Below are positions 24,405 to 46,670 of a stretch of 64,000 bases of DNA, piece after piece. The DNA lies in assembly GCA_039186435.1 (NCBI GenBank), contig JBCDAA010000002.1:2248-66247 (forward strand), in the 5' to 3' direction. The notes beneath the pieces were generated by a model. That model did not search any database, was not told where the DNA came from, and saw only the letters and a list, made by a program, of their open reading frames with translations. The DNA comes from Myxococcota bacterium. Lineage in GTDB: Bacteria; Myxococcota_A; Polyangia; Polyangiales; Houyiibacteriaceae. Position 1 is the first letter of the stretch; the number at the start of each line of letters is the position of its first letter. The translations under genes were made by a program, and so were the position numbers.

Positions 24405-25592
24405 ATGCGAAGTCTCGTGATCGTGATTGCGCTGCTGGTCGGTTGCGGCGATGACAGCGCGCCAGTGGGTGACGCAGGTACCGATGTGGCGCTCGATGCC
24501 GCGCCGGCGACGAATCCAGCGTTTCTGGTCGTGAATCGCGTGCGAACGCCAGACAGTCGAGCGATTTTCCTCAACGTCCTTCCTGACCTGGAGCCACGGA
24601 CGATCGAGCCAGGGAACGGTCTCGAGGTTGGCGGCTCGTCGCGCGCAACCGTCTACGACGGGAAGGTCTACGCGTTTGAAAGCGAGACCGGCGAGGTCGC
24701 GCGCTATCGCGTCACGGAAGGCCTCGAGCTCGTCGAAGACGGCCGCTTCAGCATGACCGGCCTCGGCATCACGCGGTTTCGCACGCAGTTCATTTTTCTG
24801 TCGCCAACGCGGGCGTACTACGTGGACATCGCCGGTCGACAGGTGGTTGTCTTCAACCCGACGGCCATGGAGATCGTGAGCACGTTTCCCGCGGTCGAGT
24901 TCGAACGAGGGGACTTCAACATCTCGGTCGCGAGGCCGGTTCAGGTAGGGGACCGCGTCATGATCGCGGTCGCCTGGGACAACGCCTCGGATGGAGAGTT
25001 TGTGCCGAGTGTGGCGGTGGTTGTTCTCTCGGCGACCGAGGATCGAGTCGAGCGAATCATTGAAGATGATCGATGTGCGCTCGCGGGAGGCGGCTTCGCC
25101 GACGGCGATCGTTTCTACGCGATCGGCGACTCTGGGGCTGGGGGCTTCGACATCTTTGGCGTCGCGCCCATCGCCGATCCCTGCGTCGTGCGCACGGACG
25201 GAGAGACCTTCGACGACTTTGTGGTCGACCTTCGGACCGTCACCGGGGCGCCGCACTTCTCGGACGCTATCGGCGCCGGCGACGGAACCTTTGTGACGCG
25301 AATCTACGATTCTGACATCGACCCCGACACGCTCACGGATCCCTTCGGCTTCTTCAACCTGGAGGTTTGGCGCTACGCGATCGTGGAGATCGAGACGGGG
25401 ACCACCAGCCGAATTGAGGACCTCCCCCTCAGCGGGATTTCCTTCGACCCCATTGTGATCGAGGGCGACTACTACGTGCAGCTCGTCGACGAAGACGAGG
25501 GGCGGTCGACGCTCTACCGCCTCTCAACGGGCGGCGCGACGGAGACCGTCGAGGCGATCGGCGACATTCAAGGCGCAGCGCGCATCCGCTAG
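24405..25592 (+). CDS. lipoprotein, paralog family member P1 (unknown family)
   Basis: Lipobox IALLVGCGDD. Shares with P2-P4 the segments SPTRAYYVD...VVVFNPTAMEI, IEDDRC and DPCVVR. Confidence 0.7.
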   Translation: MRSLVIVIALLVGCGDDSAPVGDAGTDVALDAAPATNPAFLVVNRVRTPDSRAIFLNVLPDLEPRTIEPGNGLEVGGSSRATVYDGKVYAFESETGEVARYRVTEGLELVEDGRFSMTGLGITRFRTQFIFLSPTRAYYVDIAGRQVVVFNPTAMEIVSTFPAVEFERGDFNISVARPVQVGDRVMIAVAWDNASDGEFVPSVAVVVLSATEDRVERIIEDDRCALAGGGFADGDRFYAIGDSGAGGFDIFGVAPIADPCVVRTDGETFDDFVVDLRTVTGAPHFSDAIGAGDGTFVTRIYDSDIDPDTLTDPFGFFNLEVWRYAIVEIETGTTSRIEDLPLSGISFDPIVIEGDYYVQLVDEDEGRSTLYRLSTGGATETVEAIGDIQGAARIR

Positions 25593-25628
25593 ACCGCGCG
25601 CGATCCGTTCAAAGGAAGCGCGGCCTAG
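25589..25628. repeat. REP-like palindromic element, copy 1 (CTAGACCGCGC...CGTTCAAAGGAA...GCGCGGCCTAG)
   Basis: 11-bp stem with one mismatch. It begins with the TAG stop of gene 24405-25592 and is related to 63067-63121. Confidence 0.6.
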
Positions 25629-25776
25629 ATTGTTCGTCGCTTAAGCTGAACTCGTGAACGCGGCGGTCAGTTCGACAAAGAGCCGGTTTTCCAAGACCAG
25701 GAGCTCCGTTCATCAAAATGCGAGCAGCGGACTTAAGGCGGGAAGGTAGCGAAACGTCCGCCACCAGGTTATTCAA

Positions 25777-25901
25777 GAATGGAAGACAGCAAGGGCGAGG
25801 GGACCAGCCTGCAGCGACGGGACACTCGGCGCACCCCCTTAAGCACCATTGCTAGGAGGCGTGCAGGCTGATTCCCTCACCGTTGCTGTCTTCGATCATT
25901 C
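25777..25901. other. long imperfect hairpin (~35-bp stem, ~48-nt loop) in an ORF-free 310-bp gap
   Basis: GAATGGAAGACAGCAAGGGCGAGGGGACCAGCCTGCA pairs with TGCAGGCTGATTCCCTCACCGTTGCTGTCTTCGATCATTC, with four mismatches/wobbles and one bulge by eye. It abuts the stop of gene 25905-26789. Confidence 0.6.
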
Positions 25902-25904
25902 CGC

Positions 25905-26789
25905 TTACGGGCTACAGCGCATTCCCTCCTCAAGTTGGTCATCGCACACGGTGATCTCGTAGGGCACCTCGTCGCCGTCACCGCGAAGGAAGAACGAGAG
26001 CGACCGACCGCCGGGAAACGTAAAGGGCAGGCTGAGGATTTCGGTCGCGTCTTCACAAACCACGATGGTGGTCATGAACGAGTCCTCGCCGACGCTGACC
26101 GACGCCGAGAAGATCGTGTTCGTATCGTTGGGGGAAAACCCGAGGTCGCCGTACTCGGTGTTTTCGAACGCGGAGAACGGCGTGGTGCATGCGATCTGTT
26201 TCGTGTCGATCGCGCCAAGGTCGACGCCTGCGTGGAAGAACCGCACGTAGAAGCGACGTGGAAGCAGCTCAGCGAAGACGTCGGTGGGGTACACCTCGGT
26301 TTCGACGACGTCGCTTCCAAAAAGGATCGCCGTCAAGCGACCGTCCTCGTCGGGGAGTGCCGTATCACTCGTTCCCTCAAGGGCGGTTTCGCAGTCATCG
26401 CCCGCGATCCAACGAATCATGGAGGTCTCGCCGACAGGGATCGAGCGGTGGCCGGCGATTTCGCCAAGCGCCAACGGCTCGCTGAAGAGCGGCTCGCCGA
26501 ATCCACCCGCCGCGGAAACGCAAACGTTCACGGCACTACCCGTGGTGAGGAAATTCCCGAAGCGAATCGATCGTTCGGTTGGGATCGCGGCGTCCGTTCC
26601 GGCGTCTTCCCCCGCATCTTCCCCCGCGTCCTCACCTGCGTCTTCGCCTGCGTCCGCGACGGCGTCCTCTCCCGCATCTCTCGGGTCTACGGCGCTGTCC
26701 GTCCCGCTATCGACGCCTCCTGCGTCCACGCCTGAATCGTCATCGCCACAGGCGACGAGGAGCGCCATCATCATTAACGCAACTCTCAT
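25905..26789 (-). CDS. DUF4397-like lipoprotein with (DAGE)n linker
   Basis: Lipobox MALLVACGDDD. IRFGNFLTTGSAVNVCVS... resembles the DUF4397 opening strand seen more clearly in 31909-33420. The ATG overlaps the upstream stop (ATGA). Confidence 0.5.
   Translation of the reverse strand: MRVALMMMALLVACGDDDSGVDAGGVDSGTDSAVDPRDAGEDAVADAGEDAGEDAGEDAGEDAGTDAAIPTERSIRFGNFLTTGSAVNVCVSAAGGFGEPLFSEPLALGEIAGHRSIPVGETSMIRWIAGDDCETALEGTSDTALPDEDGRLTAILFGSDVVETEVYPTDVFAELLPRRFYVRFFHAGVDLGAIDTKQIACTTPFSAFENTEYGDLGFSPNDTNTIFSASVSVGEDSFMTTIVVCEDATEILSLPFTFPGGRSLSFFLRGDGDEVPYEITVCDDQLEEGMRCSP
26590..26680. repeat. imperfect 12-bp tandem repeat encoding (DAGE)n
   Basis: Seven units of the (g/c/t)gc(g/a)tc(t/c)tc(c/a/g)cc type. 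Confidence 0.7.
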
Positions 26790-28018
26790 CGCTCGACCTC
26801 GACGCGTCCAAAGCCAGTGATCAGCCCAGTTGTCTGAAAGATCTCGATCAGGCTCTCGTCCTCGGCGATCTCGATCAGCGTGTTGTTTCCGGTAAACGCG
26901 GCTTCCGGGCGCTGAATGAACTGCCGATCGCCCACTTCAAATCCGGGTCCCGTGCGCGGCGAGACGGCATCCAGATCAAGGCGCCTTGAGGCGCTCAGGT
27001 TGTTGATGTCGACTTCAACCCAATACGAGACGGGTTCGTTCAGGAAGGTGAGAGGCGCGTCGCGCGGGTCGACGCTGCCGAGGCTTTCGTCCATGGCTGT
27101 GGTCAGGAACTTCCCGTCGCCTCGATAGAAGAGCCCGGTGCACGGAAGGCCCCCCGCCGCCTCGTTGAAGTCCACGAAGAATGCGGGATCGAAGGCGAGC
27201 TCATCGGGGGGAATGCGAAGCAAGCAGCTTGGGGGGAGCTCGTCATCGAACCACTGGCGAACGAGGTAGTTGTCTCCAAAGACGTAGATTGATCCGTCTT
27301 CCGCGAGGGCCATCCCAGAAAATCCGCCGACGCAGCGCTCGTCTTCGATCACGGCTTCGATCTCGTCCGTGGCGGTGTTGAAGACGGCGACCTGAATGCC
27401 TGGAAAGAACCCGCCGGCGAAGTCCTGTTGTTGAACCACCACAAAGAGGAGGTCGTCGCGGAGAACGCCCGGATCGATCTCCGGGAGAAAGTCCGGCTTC
27501 ATCAGCGGGCGTAGATCGATCTGGTCACCAATTTCGAGCGCCGCCGGGTCCCAGATGACAACGCGAATCCCGCCGGAACCATCAAAGAGGTACGCCTTGT
27601 CGTCCGAGATGAAGTTGTTGCCGAAAGGGATGAAGGAGAGCCCGAGGGCCGCGAGGCTGATTCGCTCACCAGGCTCCAGGGAACCGTCGGCTTGGGGAAA
27701 CCAGCGCTGCAATACCGGTTCCTCCGCGGAGCCCGTGAAGACCCGGTTGCCCTGTACGAAGACGCGTGCGTTGCCAGGAAGCTCGACGGCGTTTTCGGTT
27801 CCGATGGTGCGCCCCTCGATTTCATCGACGAGCTGCAGGTAGGACGTGCGTCCTTCCGGGCTCGCGATGGTGGTCTGGACGTACCAAAAGGCGGCTGGTT
27901 CGGTGGACGCGTCCGATCCGTCCGGCGGAGCGGCATCGCGCGCTCCTGCGTCCACGGGGGCGTCATCGTCGCCACCGCAACCGGAGAGAAGCGCTACGAG
28001 CAGCCATCGAGCGGTCAC
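26786..28018 (-). CDS. lipoprotein, paralog family member P2
   Basis: GTG 28018 (GTGA overlap with the upstream stop) gives VTARWLLVALLSGCGGDDD. Motifs are DDKAYLFD...VVIWDPAALEI, IEDERC and PSCLLR. Confidence 0.65.
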   Translation of the reverse strand: MTARWLLVALLSGCGGDDDAPVDAGARDAAPPDGSDASTEPAAFWYVQTTIASPEGRTSYLQLVDEIEGRTIGTENAVELPGNARVFVQGNRVFTGSAEEPVLQRWFPQADGSLEPGERISLAALGLSFIPFGNNFISDDKAYLFDGSGGIRVVIWDPAALEIGDQIDLRPLMKPDFLPEIDPGVLRDDLLFVVVQQQDFAGGFFPGIQVAVFNTATDEIEAVIEDERCVGGFSGMALAEDGSIYVFGDNYLVRQWFDDELPPSCLLRIPPDELAFDPAFFVDFNEAAGGLPCTGLFYRGDGKFLTTAMDESLGSVDPRDAPLTFLNEPVSYWVEVDINNLSASRRLDLDAVSPRTGPGFEVGDRQFIQRPEAAFTGNNTLIEIAEDESLIEIFQTTGLITGFGRVEVER

Positions 28019-28665
28019 GGCGTCACCTGAAAGCAGTAGACGCGGCGAGGGGGATCGCAGGGCGCACTTGCGCTTGCCGTCCATCCGTCGCCGGCTTCCG
28101 CGCAGCGGCCGACCGTTCCGTCGTCTTCAGGGTAGTACGATCGCCAACGCCGGCAGTCGACACCGGAGTAGCGACCGTCTGGGTTGGTGCCGGTAAACAC
28201 CTCGACGTCGCCCAACTCGTCGCCGTTCTCATCGAAGGAGATCGGAACACGCGGTCCAACGCGAAGTTCCTCGCGAGATTCGAATGCCATCATACCGTCG
28301 GTACGGTACCAAGGGCCCTCGCCACGCACGCTATCAACCGCGTCGCGTTCCCTCGTCGAGATCCAGGCGATCCACTCGCCTCCGAGCTCGGCACCTAGGC
28401 GCGTGCAGGTCTCGTTGGCCCGCGGAACGGAGTCTCCGGACAGCACCTCGGAGCTGACGAACACCCACGGACCCGTGACGTCCGGAGCGGCGTCCTCGGG
28501 AGCGGCGTCCTGTGCAGCGTCCAGTGGAGCGGCGTCGTCGGGAGCGGCGTCCTCGGAAGCGGCGTCCGGCGCATCATTCGAGGCCGCGTCCGAACCGGAG
28601 GCAGCGTCCGCCTCGGTCGGGGCGTTCGAATCGCACGCGAGAAGACTCGCGATAAAAACGAGCAT
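28015..28665 (-). CDS. lipoprotein, DUF1554-like (endostatin / C-type-lectin-like) domain
   Basis: ATG 28665 gives MLVFIASLLAC and an Ala/Asp/Pro linker. It then has VFVSS...ANETC...WIAWIST...WYRTDG...VFTGTNPDG...DCRRW...RVYCFQ, the Cys/Trp spacing I associate with DUF1554. Confidence 0.45.
   Translation of the reverse strand: MLVFIASLLACDSNAPTEADAASGSDAASNDAPDAASEDAAPDDAAPLDAAQDAAPEDAAPDVTGPWVFVSSEVLSGDSVPRANETCTRLGAELGGEWIAWISTRERDAVDSVRGEGPWYRTDGMMAFESREELRVGPRVPISFDENGDELGDVEVFTGTNPDGRYSGVDCRRWRSYYPEDDGTVGRCAEAGDGWTASASAPCDPPRRVYCFQVTP
28478..28612. repeat. imperfect 15-18 bp repeats encoding the (DAAPxDAA)n linker
   Basis: Recurring agcggcgtcctcggg-like units. Confidence 0.6.
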
Positions 28666-28670
28666 CCTCG

Positions 28671-29177
28671 TCAACGGTTTCGCGTCTCCGGAAACCCGTC
28701 GCCATCCTCGTCCGCGATCTCCACGAGCCGGCCCGAGTCGAGGCCAAGTTGCTGAAAGCGGTCGAACACGCCGTCGTGATCGTCGTCGAACCAAACCGAG
28801 GTGGGGCGCCCGTTTCCAGCCATGATGACGGCACGGTCAAAGCGTCCGTCACCGTCGTCGTCGCTCTGGGCAATGCGCCCGTCGTTCGTTGCGCGGTACG
28901 CATCGGTCTCTTGCGAAGAAGAGAAGAACGTGCCCGCCACAAAACTTACAAGGGCGACCGCCAAGATGGTGAGCGGTTGACGTCGCGCGCGAACCCGCGA
29001 AGCTGTCGGGACCCCGAGGCCCATCAGACCTTCGGAAAGAGAGTGATCGCGACGCGGCACCATCACCTTCCAACGTCCGTCCGCTCGATCAACCTCGGCG
29101 AGAATCCCGTGTTCGAGAAGCTCGCGAACCATGTCGTGAGCGGGGGCGGGTTCGCCAAAGCTTCGAAGCGTTCGCAT
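28671..29177 (-). CDS. single-pass membrane protein with DxDxDG-type repeats
   Basis: 168 aa with a central TM helix (LTILAVALVSFVAGTFF). The C-terminal region has DDDGDGRFD, DDDHDGVFD and DEDGDGF Ca-binding-like motifs. Confidence 0.55.
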   Translation of the reverse strand: MRTLRSFGEPAPAHDMVRELLEHGILAEVDRADGRWKVMVPRRDHSLSEGLMGLGVPTASRVRARRQPLTILAVALVSFVAGTFFSSSQETDAYRATNDGRIAQSDDDGDGRFDRAVIMAGNGRPTSVWFDDDHDGVFDRFQQLGLDSGRLVEIADEDGDGFPETRNR

Positions 29178-29185: not shown

Positions 29186-29217
29186 CTTAATGAAAGTGAA
29201 TGGCGATTTCAATAAGA
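29186..29217. promoter_or_regulatory. AT-rich island with AATGAAAGTGAAT core (weaker Fur-like site)
   Basis: 11/19 for the best 19-mer. Lies in the divergent gap between 29177(-) and the TonB-C-fused receptor (29267). Confidence 0.4.
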
Positions 29218-29266: not shown

Positions 29267-31765
29267 ATGATCGTTCGCTTGTCCCGTCTTCTTGCGGTGT
29301 GCTTGTTGCTTCCTGCGATGTCCTCGGCCCAAGGCCTCACGCCTCCTTCGCTGATCGAAGAGGCCGAGCCCACGCTTCGCGTGGAGCAAGAAGCAGCGGT
29401 CGTTCTGCGCATCACCATTGGTGCCGATGGCGCGGTCACGGAGGCGGAGGTGGTGGAAGGGGCAACGCCGTCTCTCGATCAGGCGGCGGTCGATGCCTTG
29501 CGTCGGTCGCGTTTTCGTCCAGCGACGCAGGCCGGCACTCCGGTTCCCGTTCGGGTTTTGTATCGACTGGTGTTTCGGCCGGACGTGTCGACGCAGGAAG
29601 AGCCGCCGGACACGGAACCGCAGGACACGGAACCGCAGGACGCGCCGCAGGACGCGCCGCAGGACGCGCCACAGGACACGGAACCGCAGGACACGCCGCA
29701 GGACGCGCCGCAGGACACGGAACCGCAGGACACGCCCACATTTGGCGCGGAAGCCGAGGTCGAGCGTGACTGGGAGGGACTCCTGGAACGTTCTGCGGAG
29801 GCCGTGAACGTGATCAACACGCGGGAGCTCCAGCACCGCGCGGTCGATCTCGGTGATGTGCTCGCCCGCGAACAAGGCGTCGCAATTCGGCGGAACGGCG
29901 GACTCGGATCCACCTCGCGCTTCTCTCTCGCCGGGCTCTACGATGACCAGATTCGCTTCTTCGTCGACGGCGTTCCGCTAAACGTCGCAGGCTTTCCATT
30001 CGGCCTTGCCAACGTTCCCATCTCCTTGGTCGACAGCGTCGAGATTCACCGAGGTGTGGTGCCCATTCGGCTCGGCGCGGATGCGCTTGGGGGCGCGGTG
30101 AATCTCAACGCGTCACAGCGCCTGCGGCAGACCTACGGCGCCGCCAGCTACCAGTTCGGGTCCTTCGGAACGCACCGCGCCTCGCTGGCGGCGCGCTATC
30201 ACGACGCGGACTCCGGCTTTGTCGTCGGAGGTCTCGCGTTCGCCGACCACAGTGACAACGACTACGACGTCGATGTCGAGATCCCCGACGAACGCGGACG
30301 CCTCCAACCCGCGCGCGTTCGGCGGTTTCACGATGCGTATACCGCGTTTGGTGGCACGTTTGACATCGGCGTGCTGGATCGACCCTGGGCGCGGCGGCTC
30401 ACGCTCCGCCTCTTCGGGACGGGATACGACAAAGAACTCCAGCACAACGTTGTGATGACCGTGCCCTATGGCGAGGTCACGTTCTTCGAGCGCGCCTACG
30501 GAGCGACTCTTCGCTACGACCACCAGATCGATGACGTTCGCGTGGATCTCGTGACAAGCGTCGCGACGCTACGAACGGACTTTCAGGACCTGGGAGAGCG
30601 CATCTTTGACTGGCGCGGCAACGTGCTCGGCGACCGCGCCGTACCAGGGGAGATTCAATCGGTTCCTCAGGATCAGACGTTTCGGCAGTGGACATCGTTT
30701 TCCCGGGCGGGAGTGTTCTGGGACGTGGTGAACGGACACACCCTCGGCGTGACGGCTACGCCGGAGTACACGACGCGGTCCGGCAACGATCGACGCACGG
30801 ACGATGAGCCCGACCCCCTGAGCGGCGAACAAGACCTCTTTAAACTGACGATCGGCGCCGCTCATGAGATGTCCATCGTCAACGACCGCATCGAGAATGT
30901 CCTGTTCGCCAAGTACTACTACTACCGTGCGGATACCGAGCAGCTGCTTCCAGGACGCGTCTTTCGGTCGCTCGACGAGCGCTCCCATACGCCCGGCGTC
31001 GGTAACGCAACGCGCTTCCTTCTTCATGACTCGTTCTGGATCAAGGCCTCTTACGAGTGGGCGACCCGTCTGCCCAATTCACCGGAGGTTTTTGGCGACG
31101 GTCGGTTGGTGCTAGCGAACCTGGAGCTGCAGCCCGAACGCAGCCACAACCTCAACCTCAGCGCGCAGCTCGATCACAATCACGAGGGGACCGGTCGGTG
31201 GGCTGCGGAAGTGAACCTCTTTGCGCGCTTGTCAGACGATCTGATCGTGCTTCTCGGGAACGAACGTTCCTTTATCCATCAGAACGTATTTCGCGCGCGC
31301 GGTCTCGGCGTCGAAGCGTCGGCCCAGTGGACATCGCCGGAGAGCCACGTGTCCCTCGGAGGAAACGTCACGTACCAGGACGTACGCAACGTTTCGTCGC
31401 AGGGGGCGTTCGGCGACTTTGATGGCGACCGAATTCCGAACCGGCCTTATTTCTTCGCGAACGCGAACGCGGCGCTCCGCGCGCCCAACCTGGTCGTCGA
31501 TGGGGACAGCCTGACGTTCAGCTGGGACTTTCGTTTTGTGCACGAGTTCTTTCGCGGCTGGGAGAGCCAGGGTCTTCGCGCGTTCAAGCAGACGGTGGAC
31601 ACGCAGCGAATCTTCGGCCTCGCGCTTTCCTACGCGACGCCGGATCCAACCCCGCTGACGTTTACGCTCGACCTCCAGAACGTGACCGATGCCCGCGTCT
31701 TTGACCTCTTTGGGGTTCAGCGCCCAGGGCGAACGGTCTTTTTCAAGGTTCGCGGCGAGATCTGA
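29267..31765 (+). CDS. TonB-dependent receptor with N-terminal TonB-C-like domain
   Basis: Signal LLPAMSSAQ. An ~80-aa TonB C-terminal-like module (VVLRITIGADGAVTEAEVVEG...LDQAAVDALRRSRFRPAT..GTPVPVRVLYRLVF), a PQD(T/A)(E)P repeat linker, a plug (RELQHRAVDLGDVLAREQGVAIRRNGGLGS) and a barrel. Confidence 0.85.
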   Translation: MIVRLSRLLAVCLLLPAMSSAQGLTPPSLIEEAEPTLRVEQEAAVVLRITIGADGAVTEAEVVEGATPSLDQAAVDALRRSRFRPATQAGTPVPVRVLYRLVFRPDVSTQEEPPDTEPQDTEPQDAPQDAPQDAPQDTEPQDTPQDAPQDTEPQDTPTFGAEAEVERDWEGLLERSAEAVNVINTRELQHRAVDLGDVLAREQGVAIRRNGGLGSTSRFSLAGLYDDQIRFFVDGVPLNVAGFPFGLANVPISLVDSVEIHRGVVPIRLGADALGGAVNLNASQRLRQTYGAASYQFGSFGTHRASLAARYHDADSGFVVGGLAFADHSDNDYDVDVEIPDERGRLQPARVRRFHDAYTAFGGTFDIGVLDRPWARRLTLRLFGTGYDKELQHNVVMTVPYGEVTFFERAYGATLRYDHQIDDVRVDLVTSVATLRTDFQDLGERIFDWRGNVLGDRAVPGEIQSVPQDQTFRQWTSFSRAGVFWDVVNGHTLGVTATPEYTTRSGNDRRTDDEPDPLSGEQDLFKLTIGAAHEMSIVNDRIENVLFAKYYYYRADTEQLLPGRVFRSLDERSHTPGVGNATRFLLHDSFWIKASYEWATRLPNSPEVFGDGRLVLANLELQPERSHNLNLSAQLDHNHEGTGRWAAEVNLFARLSDDLIVLLGNERSFIHQNVFRARGLGVEASAQWTSPESHVSLGGNVTYQDVRNVSSQGAFGDFDGDRIPNRPYFFANANAALRAPNLVVDGDSLTFSWDFRFVHEFFRGWESQGLRAFKQTVDTQRIFGLALSYATPDPTPLTFTLDLQNVTDARVFDLFGVQRPGRTVFFKVRGEI
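29606..29736. repeat. mixed 15/12-bp tandem repeats encoding (PQDTE/PQDA)n
   Basis: caggacacggaaccg and caggacgcgccg units alternate about ten times. Confidence 0.85.
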
Positions 31766-31874: not shown

Positions 31875-31893
31875 GATAATGACTTTCAATTTC
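31875..31893. promoter_or_regulatory. Fur-like box GATAATGACTTTCAATTTC
   Basis: 14/19 to the consensus. Lies 16 nt upstream of the DUF4397 lipoprotein ATG. Confidence 0.65.
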
Positions 31894-31908
31894 GATCGAG
31901 GAGGCGTC

Positions 31909-33490: not shown

Positions 33491-34168
33491 GTGATCGAGG
33501 TCGATGCGCTTTGGAAGAGCTACCCGCTCGGCGAGCGGAGCATCGTTGCGCTCCGCGACGTCAGCCTCCGCATTGACGACGGTGAGTTCGTCGCGGTGGT
33601 CGGCAGCTCCGGAAGCGGAAAGTCGACCCTCCTCAATGTGCTCGGTCTCCTCGATCGCTGGGATTCAGGGACGTATCAGCTGGCGGGGCGAAACATGGCC
33701 GGCCTCGCTGATCGCCGAAGCGCGCGTCTCCGAAACGAGTTGATTGGCTTTGTGTTTCAGTCCTTTCACCTGTTGCCGACGAAGAGCGCGTGGGAGAACG
33801 TGGCGCTTCCTTTGGCGTACCGGTCCTCGTCTCGCCGGGACCGAAAGAAACGCGCCCGTGCACTCCTTGAGCGCCTTGGTCTCGGCGACCGGGCGGTCCA
33901 TCGCCCGAACGAGCTCAGCGGCGGTCAGCGTCAGCGGGTTGCCATCGCTCGGGCACTCATCACTGATCCACCGCTCATTCTTGCCGATGAACCCACCGGA
34001 AACCTGGACTCGCAGACGACCAGCGAGGTGCTCGCGCTCCTTCGGTCGATGCACGGCGAGGGGCGCACCGTGGTCGTCGTCACCCATGATCCCGAGGTTG
34101 CCGCAGAAGCCGACCGCGTGATCACCATGCGCGACGCGGAGGTCGTCTCGCACGACAACCAAGGGTAA
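33491..34168 (+). CDS. ABC transporter ATP-binding protein (MacB/LolD-type)
   Basis: Walker A GSSGSGKST, signature LSGGQRQRVAIARAL, Walker B LILADEPTGNLD. Confidence 0.9.
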   Translation: MIEVDALWKSYPLGERSIVALRDVSLRIDDGEFVAVVGSSGSGKSTLLNVLGLLDRWDSGTYQLAGRNMAGLADRRSARLRNELIGFVFQSFHLLPTKSAWENVALPLAYRSSSRRDRKKRARALLERLGLGDRAVHRPNELSGGQRQRVAIARALITDPPLILADEPTGNLDSQTTSEVLALLRSMHGEGRTVVVVTHDPEVAAEADRVITMRDAEVVSHDNQG

Positions 34169-34214
34169 ACCCGGTGGCCTCTGAGGCCTTGATTCGGTAG
34201 CGTTCGCAGACGGC

Positions 34215-38265: not shown

Positions 38266-38305
38266 GACTTTCGTTGTGCATTAATGACTTTGAATATCAA
38301 AGTCA
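38264..38305. promoter_or_regulatory. three overlapping TGACTTT(C/G)(G/A) half-sites including the 9-3-9 palindrome TGACTTTGA-ATA-TCAAAGTCA
   Basis: The palindrome at 38285-38305 has exact arms. AATGACTTTGAAT and ATGACTTTCG cores abut the azurin start codon. Confidence 0.55.
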
Positions 38306-38351: not shown

Positions 38352-38370
38352 GATAATGAAAGTCATTAGC
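38352..38370. promoter_or_regulatory. Fur-like box GATAATGAAAGTCATTAGC (best match in window)
   Basis: 16/19 to GATAATGATAATCATTATC. Lies 14 nt upstream of the methyltransferase/ABC-exporter operon. Confidence 0.7.
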
Positions 38371-38383: not shown

Positions 38384-39211
38384 TTGAAAGACATCGCCGT
38401 CGAGCTTGGGCCCATTCAGGAGACCCTTCTGATCCCGCTTCTGGGACGCGCTGAGGAGACCCTCAAGAAGCGCGCTCTCCTCCGCGACCCGAAGGCCGTC
38501 GAGATCGTGGGTCGGCTCAACTATGACTTCTCGAAATGGCACGGCACTTCGAGCCTCGTTGGCGCATGCGTTCGGGCCCGTCTCTTTGACGCGATCGTCA
38601 TGTCGTTCCTCAAGGAGAACCCAGAGGGGACCGTCGTTGAAATCGGTGCGGGGCTAAACACGCGTTACGAGCGTCTCGACAACGGAACGGCCCGCTGGGT
38701 GGAGCTCGACCTTCCGGACAGCATGGCGCTTCGTCGTGAGTTCTTCGAGGATACCGAGCGCCGGACTCTCGTTACGGGAAGTGTTACCGACCCGGAATGG
38801 CATACGGCGGTCGGGGACGGTCCCGTCTGCTTCGTGTCGGAAGCGGTGTTGATCTACCTCGATGGGGACCAAGTTAAGGACGTCTTCGCGCAGCTGCTCG
38901 AACGCTTTTCGGGCGCGTGGGTTGTCATGGACACGGTGTCGTCCAAGATGGTGGACAGCCAAGCGAAGCACGACGCGATGCGCAAGCTTTCGGAGGAGAG
39001 CTGGTTTCGATGGAAGTGCGATGACCCGGCGAACCTCCACGAGTGGGGGCTGTGGCTGCAGCGGTCGCAAACGTTCCTCGATGCGTCAGACGAAATCGTC
39101 GAGGATATGCCGTGGGCGTATCAGATGATCACCCGATACGCGCCGTGGCTCATCCGTCGGCAGGTGAGCGGATATCGCATCAACCGTTTCGTACTTGGGC
39201 CGCCCGAGTGA
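38384..39211 (+). CDS. SAM-dependent methyltransferase, TcmP/LCM-like
   Basis: TTG start. Paralogous in layout to 18989-19801 (see that entry). Confidence 0.6.
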   Translation: MKDIAVELGPIQETLLIPLLGRAEETLKKRALLRDPKAVEIVGRLNYDFSKWHGTSSLVGACVRARLFDAIVMSFLKENPEGTVVEIGAGLNTRYERLDNGTARWVELDLPDSMALRREFFEDTERRTLVTGSVTDPEWHTAVGDGPVCFVSEAVLIYLDGDQVKDVFAQLLERFSGAWVVMDTVSSKMVDSQAKHDAMRKLSEESWFRWKCDDPANLHEWGLWLQRSQTFLDASDEIVEDMPWAYQMITRYAPWLIRRQVSGYRINRFVLGPPE

Positions 39212-40944
39212 AGCGGCTCCTCGCCTTCGTCCATAGCCCGTGGCTTGCGCTTGCGGTTGTGCTTCTGTGCTGCGCCGCACTCCTGGAGCTGACCCCTCAC
39301 GTGGTCGTCTACCTCGCAGCCGATGCACTTCTGCGCGACACACCGGCGATGGACCGCCTCCCGTGGCTTGCGGCGCTTGCGGTTGGTGGCGTGGTGCTTC
39401 GATATGTCTTCCTCGGCACAGGAACCGTTTTGAGCCACGCGACGGCGTTTCGAATGATGCGTCTAGCCCGGATCGCGATCGCCGAGAAACTCGCGCGGGT
39501 TCCGCTCGGGTTCTTCGGAACGCATTCGAGCGGGGACCTCAAGAAGACCACCGTCGACGATGTTGCGGCTCTCGAAGGCGTGTTTGCGCACAACCTTCCG
39601 GACCTTGCCTCTGCAGTGGTTGTCCCCGTCGCCGCGTTTGCGTGGCTTGCCCACGTTCTCGGGTGGGCAATGGCTCTCGTCAGTCTCGGTCTCGTGCCGA
39701 TCGCGTTCGCGGTTCAGGCCCGCGTGATGGGGTCGATGGGGGACGAGTTCAAGAAATGGCATGCTGCCGAAACGCGCGCGAACGAGTCGATCCTCGAGTT
39801 CCTTCGGGGCATCGCGGTTCTCAAGTCTTTTGATCGCGAAGCGCAGTCCCTCGAGCGAGTTCGCGATGGTGTCTACGGCATCCGTGACTACGCGACGGAA
39901 GTGACCGAGCGCATGATGACGGGCTATGCGCTTTTTGAGGTGCTCGTCTCGCACACGCTCCTCCTCGTGGTCCCGACGGCCGTTGCCGCGTATCTCGCCG
40001 GCTGGGTCGACGCGCCGGGTGTCGTGCTCTTCGTGGTTCTTGGCGCGGGAATGACCGCGCCCCTTTTGAAGCTGATGTTTCTCTTTGGTCGTGGCCACAT
40101 GACGAAACTCGGGGCGAAGCGAATTGTAGACGTGCTGGCCGCGGATGAGCTGACGGCGGGCGAGAGCGACGCCCCCAAGACGTTCGACATTGAAGTTCGC
40201 GGGGTGAGTTTTCGCTACGCGGAGGAGCGACCGAACGCCCTTGAGAACGTCAGCATCGTCGTCCCGGAGGGAACGGTGACCGCGATTGTGGGCCCGTCAG
40301 GATCGGGGAAGACCACGTTGGGTCGCATGCTGGTTCGAAGCACGGATCCCGATTCGGGAGCGATCGCGATCGGGGGCGTGGACCTCCGGGAGCTTCGCCC
40401 GGAACTCCTTACCACCCTCGTCGGTCGGGTCGAACAGGCGACGACGCTCTTCGTCGGGAGTGCACGAGAGAACCTTCTCCTCGCCAAGCCCGACGCGACC
40501 GACGATGAGCTTGAACGCGTGACGCGGGCCGCCAAGCTGCACGAGGTTCTCGCGCGACTTCCAAGCGGCTACGACACCGAACTTCAGGAGCGGGGCGGGC
40601 GGTTGTCTGGAGGGGAGCGACAGCGGCTTGGGATCGCGCGCGCGCTGCTTAAGGACGCGCCGGTGCTCCTCCTCGACGAGGTGACGTCCAACTTGGATGC
40701 CGAGACAGAGCACGCGGTTCAGCAGGGCATCAGCGCCCTCGCGGAGGGGCGGACGGTGATCGTGATCGCGCACCGACTCCGAAGCGTCGTTGGCTGCGAC
40801 CAAATTGTGGTTCTCGACGACGGTGCGGTCGTTGAGTCTGGAACGCACGAAGAGCTCCTCGCTCGCGACGGGCTCTACCGCGAGCTTTGGGACGCCCAAG
40901 AGTCGGCGCGTGACTGGACGCTTCGCGGGGGAGCGGCGCCTTGA
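39208..40944 (+). CDS. ABC exporter, fused permease/ATPase (half-transporter 1)
   Basis: GTG 39208 (GTGA overlap). Six-TM domain, then GPSGSGKTT, LSGGERQRLGIARAL and LLLDEVTSNLD. Confidence 0.85.
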   Translation: MKRLLAFVHSPWLALAVVLLCCAALLELTPHVVVYLAADALLRDTPAMDRLPWLAALAVGGVVLRYVFLGTGTVLSHATAFRMMRLARIAIAEKLARVPLGFFGTHSSGDLKKTTVDDVAALEGVFAHNLPDLASAVVVPVAAFAWLAHVLGWAMALVSLGLVPIAFAVQARVMGSMGDEFKKWHAAETRANESILEFLRGIAVLKSFDREAQSLERVRDGVYGIRDYATEVTERMMTGYALFEVLVSHTLLLVVPTAVAAYLAGWVDAPGVVLFVVLGAGMTAPLLKLMFLFGRGHMTKLGAKRIVDVLAADELTAGESDAPKTFDIEVRGVSFRYAEERPNALENVSIVVPEGTVTAIVGPSGSGKTTLGRMLVRSTDPDSGAIAIGGVDLRELRPELLTTLVGRVEQATTLFVGSARENLLLAKPDATDDELERVTRAAKLHEVLARLPSGYDTELQERGGRLSGGERQRLGIARALLKDAPVLLLDEVTSNLDAETEHAVQQGISALAEGRTVIVIAHRLRSVVGCDQIVVLDDGAVVESGTHEELLARDGLYRELWDAQESARDWTLRGGAAP

Positions 40945-42665
40945 TCGATCTTGGCTTTGACCTTGCCGGTCGCGTCGATCCCCGCATGCGCACTGGGTTG
41001 TGGCAGTCGGCCGTCGCCTCCGTCGCGGAGGTTGCGACCTATGCGCTCGCGTACGTCGTGCTCGAGAGCGTGCTTTCGGGGCAAAGGGTGGAACACATCC
41101 CGTGGATCGCTGCGGGGGCGATCCTTCTCGCCGTACTGGTGGGCTGGTTCTTCAAAGCGCGCGCTGGCCTCAACAACTTCGCGTCGACCTACAGTCTGGT
41201 GTGCGATGTACGGATGCGTCTCCTCGAGCATCTCCGCCGGCTGCCCATGGGCTTTTGGGCGTCCCGACGGGCCGGCGCAGTAAGCAGCATGCTTACGGAT
41301 GAGTTTGCGCTCTACACCGAGATCGCGACCCACGTTTGGGGGATGACGATTGCGCAGGCGACGTTTCCGGCGGTTCTTCTCGTCCTGCTCGCGATCGTGG
41401 ATTGGCGTCTCGCGATCGTTGCGGCGGCGCTCGTTCCTCTCGCTCTTCGAGCGGTTCCCTGGAGCCACCGCCTTCTCGATCGAGCCAGCGCGCGGCTTGC
41501 CAAAGTCCACGAAGAGTCTGTCGGTACGCTAGTCGAGTACGTGCAAGGGATCGAAACGCTACGTGAGTACGGAGCGGTCGGTTCTCAGCACCAAGCCCTG
41601 GAGGCATCTCAACGAGACCTGGAAAAGGAAATGATGCGGACCGAGCTCGCTCCGGCGCCCGCGATTCTGATGTACGCGTTTCTCGTTCACTTTGGCTTTG
41701 CGCTCGTTGTGGCGATCGGAGGCTGGCTGGTTGCGGAAGACGGACTTTCGCCGTTGACGCTTGTTCTCTTCCTCGTCGTCGGGCTCCGCTTCTTCGGATC
41801 CTTGGCCGATCTCTCCCTCTTCTTGGCGGAGGCGCGTTTTGCTTCACGGACTCTCCGGCGCCTACGCACGGTTGTTTCGACGGAAGCGCAGCACGATGTC
41901 GAAGTCGGGAACTCGCCGGTGGACGCGTCGCTCTCCGTCTCGGGTGTTCGTTTCGCCTACGAAGAAGGACGGCCGGTAATCGACGGGGTGGATGCCGAGT
42001 TCCGACCGGGGACACTCACAGCCCTCGTCGGTCCTTCCGGGTCGGGGAAGACCACCCTCGCGATGCTCTTGCCGCGGCTCTGGGACGCGGACGAGGGGAC
42101 GATCACCCTCGGTGGCGTGGATGTTCGCGACCTTCCGCTGCGTGAGCTGCAGTCGCATATCTCCGTTGTTTTTCAGGACGTGGTGCTCTTTCAGGGGACG
42201 GTCGAAGAGAACATTCGACTCGCTCGGCCGGGGGCGACCCGTGCCGAGGTTGTCGCCGCCGCAAAAGCAGCCAGGGCCGACGAGTTCATCGCTACTCTTC
42301 CGCTCGGGTACGACACTCTTCTCGGCGAGGGCGCGGAGGACCTTTCAGGCGGTCAGCGACAGCGCCTTTCGATCGCGCGTGCGCTCCTCAAGGACGCGCC
42401 GATTCTGATCCTCGACGAGGCGACTTCGGCAGTGGATCCGTACAACGAGCGTTTGATTCAGGAGGCGCTTGCGCGGCTCGTGAAGGGGCGAACCGTAATC
42501 GTCATCGCCCACCGCCTCGCGACGATTCAACACGCCGATCAGATTCTCGTGCTCGATGGTGGCCGCGTCGTTGAACGAGGCACGCACGACGACCTCCGGG
42601 CAGAGGACGGACTCTACGAGCGCTTGTGGGTGCGTCATCAGGAAGCCGCGCGCTGGCGGCTGTGA
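40941..42665 (+). CDS. ABC exporter, fused permease/ATPase (half-transporter 2)
   Basis: The start overlaps the upstream stop (TTGA; ATG 40986 is an alternative). Has GPSGSGKTT, LSGGQRQRLSIARAL and LILDEATSAVD. Confidence 0.85.
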   Translation: MIDLGFDLAGRVDPRMRTGLWQSAVASVAEVATYALAYVVLESVLSGQRVEHIPWIAAGAILLAVLVGWFFKARAGLNNFASTYSLVCDVRMRLLEHLRRLPMGFWASRRAGAVSSMLTDEFALYTEIATHVWGMTIAQATFPAVLLVLLAIVDWRLAIVAAALVPLALRAVPWSHRLLDRASARLAKVHEESVGTLVEYVQGIETLREYGAVGSQHQALEASQRDLEKEMMRTELAPAPAILMYAFLVHFGFALVVAIGGWLVAEDGLSPLTLVLFLVVGLRFFGSLADLSLFLAEARFASRTLRRLRTVVSTEAQHDVEVGNSPVDASLSVSGVRFAYEEGRPVIDGVDAEFRPGTLTALVGPSGSGKTTLAMLLPRLWDADEGTITLGGVDVRDLPLRELQSHISVVFQDVVLFQGTVEENIRLARPGATRAEVVAAAKAARADEFIATLPLGYDTLLGEGAEDLSGGQRQRLSIARALLKDAPILILDEATSAVDPYNERLIQEALARLVKGRTVIVIAHRLATIQHADQILVLDGGRVVERGTHDDLRAEDGLYERLWVRHQEAARWRL

Positions 42666-43115: not shown

Positions 43116-43136
43116 CACACCGCGAGGTTAGCATAT

Positions 43137-43155: not shown

Positions 43156-43202
43156 CGATAACGCGGATGGCTCTCTTGATGAAGCGATTTAAGTGTTTGA
43201 AA

Positions 43203-43790: not shown

Positions 43791-43834
43791 CCTGGCCGGC
43801 TACCACAGGCGGTAGCCTCGGTCACTTGCTTCGT

Positions 43835-43854
43835 TATTTATCACATGATAAATA
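43835..43854. promoter_or_regulatory. palindrome TATTTATCA-CA-TGATAAATA, probable TetR operator
   Basis: Exact 9-nt arms in the 64-bp gap between the divergent tetR and hydrolase genes. Confidence 0.6.
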
Positions 43855-45423
43855 GTGAGGGTGAAATCGATAGGGGTTTGCCTTTCAATGCTCCTTCTTC
43901 TCGGGTGCGAAGGCAGCCAGCGCTGTGATGAGCCCGCGTCGATGGAGACCCACCAGGTTCGCGCGTCGGATGACGTCGAGCTCGTCTTCACGATCTTTCG
44001 TCCGGCTGGGGCCTGCGGCGCCGACCCGGTTCCCATCATCCTCTGGAATCACGGGTATCCGGAGTCGCGGGCGGACTCCTTGGACGACGCGCGTCCCTAT
44101 CTCGAACGCGGCTACGGGTTTGTCTCCCTCGACCAGCGGGGCATCCTCGGGGAGACCGGAGGATTCACCAGCGGTGCCGCCCGTCCTGGCATCGAGGACG
44201 CCGACGCGAGCCTCGTCCTCGATTGGGTGCACGACAACGTTGAGTGGGCCGAGCGTGAACCTTCGTCGGGAATCGAACGGGACCTTGCTGTGGGAACGTT
44301 CGGCAACGGCGGCGGTGGCCATCTCTCTCTACTTCTCGCCGCGTCGGATCCACGCATCGACGCGGTCGTTCCCTACGTGGCGTACTCGTCCGTACTCGAC
44401 GATGTATTCGTCCCGAACGAGGCTCCCCGCGCATTTTGGGCCGCTCTCTTTCTCGATTTCTCCATCACCCTCGGAGTGCGTTTCGATCCAACGTTGCTGC
44501 CGTCGATCGAGAGCGCCGGCGAAACCCTGATCGTCGACGAAGTACTCCGCGAGGTCTGGCGGGAGTCCGACATTACTTCGGTCGGCGACCGCATTCGCGC
44601 GCCGACGATGTTCCTCCATCCGCTTCCCGATCAGATCACGAGCGGACTTCGCGCGGCGGTACGTAGCCATCAGTCGATCGCGACGGATCCCTCGGAGCGA
44701 TGGCTCATCGGCTTGAATGCGCCCTTTCTCGATATCGGAGATACCCGCGGATTTGGCGTGGGGGCGCCCGACCGAGAACGTCCGAACCAGTGCGCTGACA
44801 TCTACACGCCAGGCTTTCAGGGAGGTGGCCTCGGCCGTTTTCTCGACGGCGAGCTGCTCTTTCTCTTCTTCGACGCGTTCGTTCGCCGTGACGAGGCAGC
44901 TCGGGCACGGATGGACAGGGTGCCGCACGTGCTTCTTCCGATCGAACAAGACGGGTGTCTTCGCGCGGACGCGTGGCCGGTGGCGGCGCGCGTTGAGGAG
45001 TACGCCCTTGGGAACGTCGCGATTCCGCAGGACGACGCGGCGATGTCGTTTCCTCTTTTGGAGGCCACGGAGCCGATGCTCCTCGCGGGCACGGTCGAGT
45101 TCGCCGCGACGATTCCTGACGGGCAGGACGAGATTTTTCTCGGTTCCCTCGTCGTCGTCAGCGGTGACCGCTCCTACGTGGTGAACGACCAGGTGCACGG
45201 CGCGCAGACGGGACGTTTCTCGGGGCGAATCAACCTGGATCTCAGCACCGTCGTGACGCGCTTGGAGGCCGGAGACTCGCTTCGCTTTGTGGTCGAGGGC
45301 GAACAGTTTCTCTACGCCCGCGCCGGGGGTGAGATCACGGAGCCGGCGTCTCTCGAGGATGTTGTGGTTCGGGTGCCCTTCGCGGAGATCGGTCTCGCGG
45401 GTGGGCCGGAGATGATCGAGTGA
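43855..45423 (+). CDS. CocE/NonD (S15)-like alpha/beta-fold lipoprotein, nucleophile Ser apparently absent
   Basis: Lipobox SMLLLLGCEG. PVPIILWNHGY...GYGFVSLDQRG is typical of the family. Where GxSYxG is expected the sequence reads VGTFGNGGGGH. Confidence 0.6.
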   Translation: MRVKSIGVCLSMLLLLGCEGSQRCDEPASMETHQVRASDDVELVFTIFRPAGACGADPVPIILWNHGYPESRADSLDDARPYLERGYGFVSLDQRGILGETGGFTSGAARPGIEDADASLVLDWVHDNVEWAEREPSSGIERDLAVGTFGNGGGGHLSLLLAASDPRIDAVVPYVAYSSVLDDVFVPNEAPRAFWAALFLDFSITLGVRFDPTLLPSIESAGETLIVDEVLREVWRESDITSVGDRIRAPTMFLHPLPDQITSGLRAAVRSHQSIATDPSERWLIGLNAPFLDIGDTRGFGVGAPDRERPNQCADIYTPGFQGGGLGRFLDGELLFLFFDAFVRRDEAARARMDRVPHVLLPIEQDGCLRADAWPVAARVEEYALGNVAIPQDDAAMSFPLLEATEPMLLAGTVEFAATIPDGQDEIFLGSLVVVSGDRSYVVNDQVHGAQTGRFSGRINLDLSTVVTRLEAGDSLRFVVEGEQFLYARAGGEITEPASLEDVVVRVPFAEIGLAGGPEMIE

Positions 45424-46670
45424 CGTACGAGCGACTCGGAGGAGTCCCGAAACATCTCGCACTCTGCCTGGCGCTGCTCGCCTGTGGGGGCACGTCGTCG
45501 CGAGACGCGGAGGTCGACGTAGGAGACGCGCCCGAAGGGCCGCTTCGGCAGTTCCTCGTGGGCGGAATCACCGTGACGCCCGATGGAAGCAACGCGTTTG
45601 GCGTCGTAGTTTCGGAGCTTTCCCTCGGCGTGGACATCGACCTTGGCTCCGCGGCCGTCTTTGCGGGAAGGCCGTCCGTCGCGGTTTCTCCCGACCGAGA
45701 CGGCGTCGTCTGGATCGGTCTCGACGAAGAACCTGTGGTTGAACGGTACGAGGTAGGCGCTGACGGGTTCCTCGAGCTCGTGGACCGCATGAGCGTTGCG
45801 GGTCTCGGTCTGTCGAGCGGTCGCGGCACGGAGCTCGACGGGATTCAGATTCTCTCGCCGCAGAAGGCGTACCTGATCGACGCAGAGACCCTCCAAGTCG
45901 TGGTGTTCGATCCGACCGAAATGGAACTCCTGCGCTCTTTTTCCCTCGAGGGCTTGGCGCGCGAAGGGCGCGGGTTCATCGACATTGTTCGAGACGGCGA
46001 ACGCATCGTGATCGTCGCGAGTACGTTTCGCGCGGACGACACCGCGGACCTTGAAACGAGGGCGGCGTTCGTCGACCTGCAGACCGATGAGGTTCGCTAC
46101 GCGTCCCAAGGTCGCTGCGGAAATCTGGCGTGGAGTGCACGCGACTCGGATGGAAATCTCTACTTTGCGTCTCATCCGCAGCAGGGGGCCGACGTTGCGG
46201 TTGGCACGGCAGGCGATCCTCCGAGTCCGCCCTGTCTCGTGCGGATTCGCGCGGGGGAGGCTGGCTTTGACGAAGGCTACTTCGTCGACCTTCGAGAGCT
46301 CGCGGGTGGCCCGGCGGGTGCGGTCGTTCAAGCCGGTGGCGGGTGGGCGTACACGCTGGTCTACGACGAAAGTCGAACGCCGCTGACGATCGACAACGTG
46401 GCCCTATCGACGCTCCTTGCGGAGTGGCGTTATTTCGCGTTTCGGCTGGGTGACGAAGCTGAAGGGGGTCAGCGGATCGAGAGCATTCGCCCCTCGTCCG
46501 GCATCGGGTTGGGATTCAGCGTCAACACCGGGATCGCGGAAGTGCCCATGGTCACAATCCCGAACGCTGGGTTTGCGCGAAGCACCGTGTACGACGTTTC
46601 CGATCCTCTCTCCTTCGAACGGCGGATGTTGGTACCGGGTCTTGCGTTTGGGGCGTTGAGAGTTCGCTGA
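45420..46670 (+). CDS. lipoprotein, paralog family member P4
   Basis: The GTG start overlaps the upstream stop. Lipobox LALLACGG. Motifs are SPQKAYLID...VVVFDPTEMEL, SQGRC and PPCLVR. Confidence 0.65.
   Translation: MTYERLGGVPKHLALCLALLACGGTSSRDAEVDVGDAPEGPLRQFLVGGITVTPDGSNAFGVVVSELSLGVDIDLGSAAVFAGRPSVAVSPDRDGVVWIGLDEEPVVERYEVGADGFLELVDRMSVAGLGLSSGRGTELDGIQILSPQKAYLIDAETLQVVVFDPTEMELLRSFSLEGLAREGRGFIDIVRDGERIVIVASTFRADDTADLETRAAFVDLQTDEVRYASQGRCGNLAWSARDSDGNLYFASHPQQGADVAVGTAGDPPSPPCLVRIRAGEAGFDEGYFVDLRELAGGPAGAVVQAGGGWAYTLVYDESRTPLTIDNVALSTLLAEWRYFAFRLGDEAEGGQRIESIRPSSGIGLGFSVNTGIAEVPMVTIPNAGFARSTVYDVSDPLSFERRMLVPGLAFGALRVR

Follow-up and report, generated by a model that had tools for sequence, protein, structure and literature searches.

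A putative Xus-like siderophore-uptake island with four XusB-family lipoproteins in a Myxococcota bacterium

Introduction

To our knowledge, gut Bacteroides are the only bacteria in which lids of the XusB type have been characterised. XusB, a lipoprotein of the cell surface, binds ferric enterobactin or ferrichrome on one face of its propeller and sits on the transporter XusA, and its gene lies beside those of a TonB-dependent transporter (TBDT) and of a PepSY protein that is thought to reduce iron (PMC13142918). According to a preprint survey of TBDT–lipoprotein lid pairs, XusA–XusB proximity occurs almost only in Bacteroidota, and the survey asks why (10.1101/2023.03.17.533168). Here we describe a 64,000-nucleotide stretch of DNA, referred to below as the window, from a Myxococcota bacterium of the Houyiibacteriaceae (GCA_039186435.1, contig JBCDAA010000002.1, positions 2,248 to 66,247 of the forward strand), in which four genes encode paralogous lipoproteins, P1–P4, in the company of TBDT and PepSY_TM genes. 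An original prediction, made from the letters alone, had taken these proteins for undescribed ligand-capture lipoproteins that could not be assigned to a named family, had likened their surroundings to XusABC and BtuG, and had suggested comparison with Pfam, DUF4374 and BtuG profiles and a Foldseek search with predicted structures.

The reading that we favour, with a probability of about 0.62, is a Xus-like ferric-siderophore uptake island in which P1–P4 capture ligands for an XusA/MxcH-type transporter. Each of P1–P4 would fold as a seven-bladed beta-propeller, be anchored by a lipid and bind a metal chelate, most likely a ferric siderophore, which it would hand to the TonB-dependent transporter encoded at 29267–31765; PepSY_TM inner-membrane proteins (XusC/FoxB type) would then free the iron by reduction, and the genes would be part of an island for iron uptake that Fur-like boxes control. 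The identity of the ligands, the specificities of single paralogs, the location on the outer surface, the contact with the transporter and the regulation by iron are the parts of this reading that we infer. In the literature searched, no paper describes an XusB-type system in Myxococcota, links DUF4374 to myxobacteria or links MxcH to an XusB-type lipoprotein.

Family assignment of P1–P4

The four genes and their products, with lengths in amino acids (aa), are as follows:
24405–25592 (+): P1, lipoprotein assigned to the XusB/DUF4374 family, 395 aa, last gene of its operon
26786–28018 (−): P2, lipoprotein assigned to the XusB/DUF4374 family, 410 aa, encoded in the operon that diverges from the XusA/MxcH-like receptor gene
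36529–37752 (−): P3, the most divergent paralog, 407 aa, directly 3' of a lipid-anchored azurin gene
45420–46670 (+): P4, lipoprotein assigned to the XusB/DUF4374 family, 416 aa, after an S15-type hydrolase lipoprotein gene, whose stop codon its start overlaps

All four reading frames translate without internal stops at these coordinates. The NCBI proteins AAGE52_00400 and AAGE52_00410 of the metagenome-assembled genome (MAG) match P1 and P2 with 100% identity from end to end, and P4 is 100% identical to AAGE52_00490 (P0034, 416 aa; BLASTP), encoded on the same 66,654-base contig; the starts of these three also agree with those of the MAG proteins. Each translation has a lipobox (LVGC, LSGC, AIAC and LLAC) after a hydrophobic N-terminal stretch. 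The proteins are 25–32% identical to one another over nearly their full length (BLASTP E 3e-17 to 2e-29), which rules out chance similarity; P3, compared with the other three, gives E 3e-17 to 1e-21. The predicted set of four collinear, paralogous lipobox proteins of 395–416 aa thus stands.

Profile searches point to a single named family. Against Pfam-A, the DUF4374 model PF14298.12 scores 17.5 bits with P1 (E 0.002), 19.1 bits with P2 (E 7e-4) and 15.7 bits with P4 (E 0.007), below its cutoff of 25, and pre-computed matches to PF14298.14, a version in which Pfam names the family 'XusB', exist for P1, P2 and P4, not for P3. A search of NCBIfam returned no family for P1–P4. A profile of the four paralogs found B. 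fragilis XusB (BfXusB, 9HQE) among PDB sequences with E 7e-5, and a profile of 29 sequences (the paralogs and homologues) found B. thetaiotaomicron XusB (BtXusB; 8gex, 9gcy, 9gbc_B, 9hq1) with E about 3e-13, BfXusB (9hqe) with E 2e-8 and BtuG-type proteins with about 4e-4. Nothing other than XusB/DUF4374 and BtuG-type proteins was returned by the profile searches against the PDB.

The predicted fold agrees with the profiles. AlphaFold2 models of P1 and P2, with a predicted local distance difference test score (pLDDT) of 90.8 and 90.5 and a predicted template modelling score (pTM) of 0.86 and 0.85, respectively, are all-beta with about 28–30 strands. In Foldseek searches of the PDB, the best match of the P1 model is BfXusB chain 9hqk_A (E 5.5e-20, template modelling (TM) score 0.74/0.78) and that of the P2 model is chain 9hqk_D (E 1.2e-17, TM 0.73/0.78); for each model the top six matches are all BfXusB chains, with and without ferrichrome (TM 0.67–0.78), and about 390 columns are aligned. 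BtuG surface lipoproteins come second at TM about 0.55–0.70 and generic propellers score lower. The evidence on fold comes from the P1 and P2 models, and P3 and P4 are placed by paralogy.

Because the profile matches to solved XusB and the predicted fold agree, P1–P4 are, as far as profiles and models can tell, distant members of the XusB/DUF4374 family (PF14298), related by homology rather than analogy; P3 is included on the strength of its paralogy with P1, P2 and P4 and of the motifs common to all four. The view that they could not be placed in a named family is therefore superseded, and 'undescribed' was too strong a word, since pre-computed PF14298 matches already exist on P1, P2 and P4. 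BtXusB and BfXusB have none of their ligand-binding residues in common (PMC13142918), so that sequence cannot decide the ligand of any of P1–P4.

The hidden Markov model (HMM) alignment of the family to BfXusB is collinear. That to BtXusB (8gex_A) is out of order, query residues 208–306 corresponding to chain residues 115–214 and query residues 31–106 to chain residues 309–390, which is likely to reflect slippage of the blade register in a repeated fold, the alternative being a circular shift of blades in BtXusB.

Motifs and cysteines

The motifs listed in the original prediction, including the aromatic strand near the C-terminus, are all found in the alignment of P1–P4. They comprise S-x-x-(K/R)-(A/G)-Y-x-x-D ... 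V-x-x-x-P, in which Y138, D141, V148 and P152 are invariant (P1 numbering throughout), the EDDRC/EDERC/DVDC/QGRC site with invariant C224, xxC(V/L/Y)(V/L)R 36–40 residues further on with invariant C260 and R263, and VWRY/VSYW/MWRW/EWRY close to the C-terminus. Conservation was then counted in an alignment of 180 family sequences, where P152 is again invariant. The lipobox column holds Cys in 164 of the 180 and both internal Cys are kept in 171, in line with the two invariant Cys and the plausible disulfide proposed earlier; the most frequent number of Cys per protein is three. Four full-length exceptions have letters in both Cys columns, among them P0027 and P0095, which lack both, and P0147, which lacks one. 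With the lipobox Cys retained in most sequences and the internal pair kept in most and lost together in two, the pattern fits an exported, disulfide-bonded lipoprotein. The invariant positions of the family are of a structural type (Gly, Pro, Cys, aromatic), and no invariant residue of a catalytic type stands out.

The acidic stretch that follows the lipid-bearing Cys has a pLDDT below about 60 up to residue 30–40 in the P1 and P2 models and resembles a tether. In most lipoproteins encoded in this region, the mature protein starts with C-G-(G)-D-D (genes at 22256, 24405, 25905, 26786, 28015 and 36529), followed by an acidic, Ala/Gly-rich linker of 25–60 residues. This start is similar to the acidic residues in the export signal of Bacteroidota lipoproteins, but it may be no more than the organism's style of tether.

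Transporter and reductase partners

The genes that would complete the system, with the small open reading frame (ORF) between P4 and the second PepSY_TM gene, are these:
29267–31765 (+): TonB-dependent receptor, XusA homologue and MxcH equivalog, with a Pfam Plug domain and an N-terminal TonB_C-like domain
22823–24400 (+): PepSY_TM inner-membrane protein of the XusC/FoxB type (Pfam PepSY_TM E 1.4e-43), directly 5' of P1
46855–47118: ORF of 87 aa with two predicted transmembrane segments, between P4 and the second PepSY_TM gene
47010–48623, likely start near 47115 (+): second PepSY_TM protein (Pfam PepSY_TM E 7.3e-48), 3' of P4

Searched against the PDB with phmmer, the receptor matches XusA (9gbc_A) with E 1.7e-67 over residues 175–829, the next match being BtuB at 4e-11 in the plug only. 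It scores 975 bits with the NCBIfam model NF038079 (TonB_sider_MxcH; cutoff 925), nearly the whole of which is covered, and 67.8 bits with the BtuB-type model TIGR01779 (cutoff 599.7). Its TonB_C-like domain lies at residues 40–104 (Pfam E 2e-11; TIGR01352 above cutoff) and is spanned by the MxcH model, whereas the alignment to B. thetaiotaomicron XusA (BtXusA) begins at residue 175. Because the receptor qualifies as MxcH, the system may import the organism's own catecholate siderophore, beside or instead of foreign ones. The lack of a hook in P1–P4 is not taken here as a sign of catecholate or hydroxamate specificity: the best fold match of P1 and P2 is a hydroxamate binder, while the receptor belongs to the catecholate (MxcH/XusA) type. 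A search of the PepSY_TM proteins against PDB sequences gave no match.

Operons were read from gene spacing and strand. The P1 operon consists of a methyltransferase-like gene, a 187-aa lipoprotein gene, PepSY_TM and P1, and the P2 operon, on the minus strand, of a 168-aa ORF, a 216-aa lipoprotein gene, P2 and a 294-aa lipoprotein gene. Lipid-anchored azurin and P3 form a two-gene operon, and P4 follows an S15/CocE-NonD-like hydrolase lipoprotein gene, with a TetR gene divergent from the pair. P2 is thus divergent from the XusA-like receptor gene, P1 and P4 adjoin PepSY_TM genes, and P3 adjoins neither a TBDT nor a PepSY_TM gene. The neighbourhood that had been read by eye is borne out: P1 directly follows a PepSY_TM gene, P4 precedes the pair of a small membrane ORF and PepSY_TM, the P2 operon diverges from the receptor, P3 lies 3' of the azurin gene, and the promoters of three of the four paralog operons (P1, P2 and P3) carry Fur-like boxes. 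The likeness to XusABC and BtuG has also held, with XusB homology, an XusA-homologous receptor, PepSY_TM proteins of the XusC type and BtuG as the second-best fold.

Putative regulatory sites

We searched the window for the core motif of the classical Fur box, AATGANNNTCAWT, allowing at most one mismatch. There are 13 matches, which represent eight distinct sites, where 2.1 would be expected, and none of 100 shuffles reaches 13. Their positions are:
21467–21479 and 21537–21549: Fur-like boxes upstream of the operon ending in P1, with a 19-mer at 21534–21552 that matches 15/19
29189–29201: Fur-like box within the 89-bp promoter stretch that separates the P2 operon from the divergent receptor gene
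31878–31890: Fur-like box upstream of a DUF4397 gene
38283–38295 and 38355–38367: Fur-like boxes in the divergent promoter between azurin–P3 and the LCM–ABC genes, with a 19-mer at 38352–38370 that matches 16/19
8276 and 50697: Fur-like sites elsewhere in the window

The best 19-mers are thus 15/19 and 16/19 when read against the consensus of E. coli. On the favoured reading, Fur would bind this motif and the genes would respond to iron. Exact AATGANNNTCAWT matches also occur in the related loci L004, L007, L008 and L009 described below, the site in L004 being about 135 bases 5' of a P2-like gene. A weak Fur-like match (13/19) lies at 46804–46822, near the two-transmembrane ORF after P4. A perfect palindrome, ATTTATCACATGATAAAT, occupies 43834–43851 between the TetR gene and the operon of the S15 hydrolase and P4; it is a likely TetR operator, in which case P4 would be controlled not by Fur but by a local repressor that responds to a ligand.

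Relatives and recurring gene context

An exhaustive search with the family HMM found 1,690 cluster representatives with E<=1e-3, of which 645 have E<=1e-30, and among the 150 matches listed almost all are full length. All named family members come from Myxococcota MAGs (Sandaracinaceae, Nannocystaceae and unclassified Myxococcota), and one relative is named 'DUF4374 domain-containing protein' by NCBI. A narrower family alignment, run against genome contigs, found eight loci, all in Myxococcota MAGs. The closest relatives in other contigs are up to 52% identical to P1, up to 73% to P2, 48% to P3 and up to 41% to P4, with P2 orthologues of 49–73% identity in Myxococcota MAGs; two metagenome scans for relatives of the P3 type found none. 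Because each paralog is nearer to relatives in other contigs than to its siblings, the duplications are old by sequence comparison. A recent local duplication is ruled out, the siblings being 25–32% identical and the outside relatives of P1–P3 48–73% and of P4 up to 41%.

The gene company recurs in several of the related loci. In L001, a 6.2-Mb ENA contig, an XusA-like gene (46% identity) is followed by a P2-like gene (39%) and then PepSY_TM; this contig may be from Bacteroidota, given its GC content of 55%, the C-Q-E-D-D that follows the lipid-bearing Cys and its GH97 and PDDEXK_9 neighbours. L011 has an operon of a P4-like gene, PepSY_TM and an XusA-like receptor (51%), and in L013 an XusA-like gene (48%) is divergent from a P1-like gene (45%). 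In L007, L008, L009 and L015, PepSY_TM has two or three family members as neighbours. Homologues of the 294-aa lipoprotein of the P2 operon flank P2-type genes in L002/L012, L003, L004, L005/L010 and L011 (tblastn), and DUF4397 is marked at the corresponding position in L010 and L015. The C-terminal domain of the DUF4397 protein encoded 3' of the receptor likewise recurs beside P2-type genes (L002, L003, L004, L011 and L012), and homologues of the LCM and ABC genes recur in L004, L009 and L015. Nothing relevant on DUF4397 was found in the literature searched.

Two loci have a different setting. At 4388–9281 of L017 a family member lies beside genes for the biosynthesis of pyrroloquinoline quinone (PQQ; PqqC/D/E-like, with a GSDH-type dehydrogenase), and positions 1–9404 of L018, a TARA ocean scaffold, hold a tandem array of five XusB-like genes next to a LytTR regulator gene, and no transporter gene is visible there. 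Some members of the wider family may bind ligands other than siderophores.

Alternative interpretations

Several observations weigh against a Xus-like ferric-siderophore uptake island. The curated PF14298 cutoff is reached by none of P1, P2 and P4, P3 has no Pfam match in either local Pfam-A or the pre-computed records, the identity of P1 and P2 to solved XusB is only 14–17%, and W323 of BfXusB, which contacts ferrichrome, aligns with no conserved residue in the one HMM alignment used. A single XusA-like transporter accompanies the four lipoproteins, and P1, P3 and P4 adjoin no TBDT in the window; the operon partner of P3 is a copper protein; P4 is preceded by a TetR gene and a palindrome, not by a Fur-like box; and the DNA examined at L010, L012, L017 and L018 contains neither TBDT nor PepSY. 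We also know of no established route or signal for the export of lipoproteins to the surface in Myxococcota, and because of this a position as lids on the outer face is not proven. Proteins of the same family and fold could instead face the periplasm, anchored in the inner leaflet of the outer membrane or in the inner membrane, and act as siderophore shuttles or as partners of the PepSY_TM reductases rather than as extracellular lids, and the arrangement of P1 and P4 beside PepSY_TM genes rather than a TBDT is what such a role would lead one to expect, as is the recurrence of PepSY_TM beside family members in L007, L008, L009 and L015, where the DNA examined holds no TBDT. Surface export of lipoproteins is, moreover, characteristic of Bacteroidota, to which almost all TBDT–lid pairs were reported to belong (10.1101/2023.03.17.533168). 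The solved homologues, however, are surface-exposed lids on XusA (PMC13142918), genes of the P1, P2 and P4 types each directly adjoin an XusA-like TBDT in some genome, and the acidic, low-confidence stretch after the lipid-bearing Cys is tether-like, so that we regard a periplasmic role as unlikely.

The nature of the ligand and of the activity invites two other explanations. XusB-fold proteins might bind something other than iron chelates, with P3 as a copper chelator or redox partner and the others as binders of corrinoids or PQQ. The two-gene azurin–P3 operon, a multicopper oxidase about 2.4 kb from a P2-type gene in L012, the PQQ biosynthesis genes of L017 and the second place of the B12-binding BtuG among the fold matches, with its weak sequence match (E 4e-4), would all suit this idea. 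Yet the azurin–P3 promoter carries two Fur-like boxes, including the best 19-mer (16/19), no azurin gene was found beside the P3-like genes in L007 and L009, and the receptor is of the XusA/MxcH type, with no cobalamin or BtuB-type genes nearby; non-iron ligands are accordingly, in our estimate, quite improbable for this island. That the propellers are enzymes, for instance lactonase-like or siderophore-hydrolysing ones, rather than binders is hard to credit: Foldseek also returns 6-phosphogluconolactonase and muconate-lactonizing enzyme at TM 0.5–0.6, but these matches are far weaker than those to XusB and have no support at the level of sequence or profile, and the family shows no invariant residues of a catalytic type. 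A generic propeller enzyme was rejected on these grounds.

A Xus-like uptake island would, on the evidence of sequences and models, be a system of a known kind that lies outside Bacteroidota and has an enlarged set of lipoproteins, and the advance is one of annotation. A bolder version, which we hold to be doubtful, is that lid-assisted TonB uptake operates in Myxococcota as well, with one MxcH/XusA-type transporter served by several interchangeable XusB-type lipoproteins of differing specificity. If it were true, a surface-export route for lipoproteins, undescribed in Myxococcota, would be required. The family at issue is a large clade, with 645 cluster representatives at the stricter threshold, named members that are all Myxococcota and the same three types of component. 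If the uptake island is confirmed, the lid mechanism would extend beyond Bacteroidota, a testable function would be available for 'hypothetical' lipoproteins of marine myxobacterial MAGs, and a way would be suggested in which myxobacteria, as predators or competitors, could come to use more kinds of siderophore.

Other genes of the island and the window

The remaining genes around P1–P4 are listed below:
25905–26789 (−): 294-aa lipoprotein, weakly DUF4397-like, its start overlapping the end of P2
28671–29177 (−): 168-aa ORF, first gene of the P2 operon
28015–28794 (−): ORF of a lipoprotein of about 216 aa counted from the Met at 28665, second gene of the P2 operon
31879–33420 (+): DUF4397 protein of 513 aa, 3' of the receptor gene, with the Fur-like box 31878–31890
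33491–36528: MacB-type ABC transporter and HlyD-type protein, adjoining P3
37837–38265 (−): lipid-anchored azurin, first gene of the azurin–P3 operon (Copper-bind E 6e-18; lipobox LLGC)
38384–42665 (+): LCM-type methyltransferase and two fused ABC permease/ATPase genes, divergent from azurin–P3
43203–43790 (−): TetR regulator, divergent from the S15 hydrolase gene
43855–45423 (+): S15/CocE-NonD-like hydrolase lipoprotein, directly 5' of P4

Neither the 168-aa ORF nor the 216-aa lipoprotein matches a Pfam or NCBIfam family, and the azurin scores 109.8 bits with TIGR02695 (cutoff 105.1). The two fused ABC permease/ATPase genes span 39043–42665. Transporters of types similar to those encoded here (YbtPQ/IrtAB, PvdRT) import or export siderophores in other bacteria, and siderophore biosynthesis genes (nonribosomal peptide synthetase (NRPS), dihydroxybenzoate (DHB)) were not found in the window. 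The 168-aa ORF, the 216-aa and 187-aa lipoproteins, the small transmembrane protein, the azurin and the S15 hydrolase were not found in any of the related loci examined, and a search of the window against Rfam found no family.

The region 3213–17140 forms a second iron or haem block, made up as follows:
3213–4535 (−): HTTM/VKGC-like protein
4546–5817 (−): imelysin
5616–6989 (−): di-haem DHOR protein
6993–8579 (−): imelysin
8681–10810: TonB-dependent receptor, divergent from the imelysin/DHOR block, with Fur-like boxes at 8165–8291 in between
10765–12420: 551-aa protein with three HmuY stretches
12417–14429: Kelch propeller
16250–17140: second HmuY-like ORF

HmuY is another type of lipoprotein best known beside transporters of Bacteroidota. 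At 50811–50989, an intergenic position upstream of an ORF at 51107, the window also contains three tandem copies of a 62–65-bp unit, two of them 98% identical and the third 65%, with a Fur-like box at 50697–50709 and no Rfam family.

Comparison with known systems

Of the described systems, BtuG, the seven-bladed propeller lipoprotein that forms a TBDT lid on BtuB, offers the second-best fold (TM 0.55–0.70) and a profile match of E 4e-4, but the XusB matches are clearly stronger and neither a BtuB-type receptor nor cobalamin genes occur in this context. The myxochelin system is approached from the side of the transporter, since the receptor at 29267–31765 qualifies as MxcH by NF038079 (975 bits against a cutoff of 925), whereas no myxochelin biosynthesis genes (NRPS, DHB) were found in the window. 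With the B. thetaiotaomicron XusABC system (9GCY/8GEX; complex 9GBC) the locus has all three types of component in common, namely XusA-like, XusB-like and PepSY_TM proteins. It differs from it in its architecture, there being no three-gene operon but four lipoprotein operons, one transporter and two PepSY_TM genes, in the N-terminal TonB_C-like domain and MxcH status of the receptor, and in the DUF4397-like partners of the myxobacterial clade. P1–P4 are also too short for an insert of the BtXusB type and match the hookless form best.

That form is represented by BfXusB (9HQE/9HQK), a hookless, ferrichrome-binding protein, which is the best structural match of P1 and P2 (TM 0.73–0.78) and which, like P1–P4, is a lipoprotein of similar length (414 aa, compared with 395–416 aa), aligns collinearly by HMM and keeps the gene company of a TBDT and a PepSY protein. 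P1–P4 depart from it in their low identity (14–17%), in belonging to another phylum and in forming four paralogs in separate operons; the myxobacterial Cys pair is, in addition, missing from the aligned segments of both BfXusB and BtXusB, which have Ala and Gly at the second Cys. The closest known protein to P1–P4 is hookless BfXusB, and the closest known system is XusABC.

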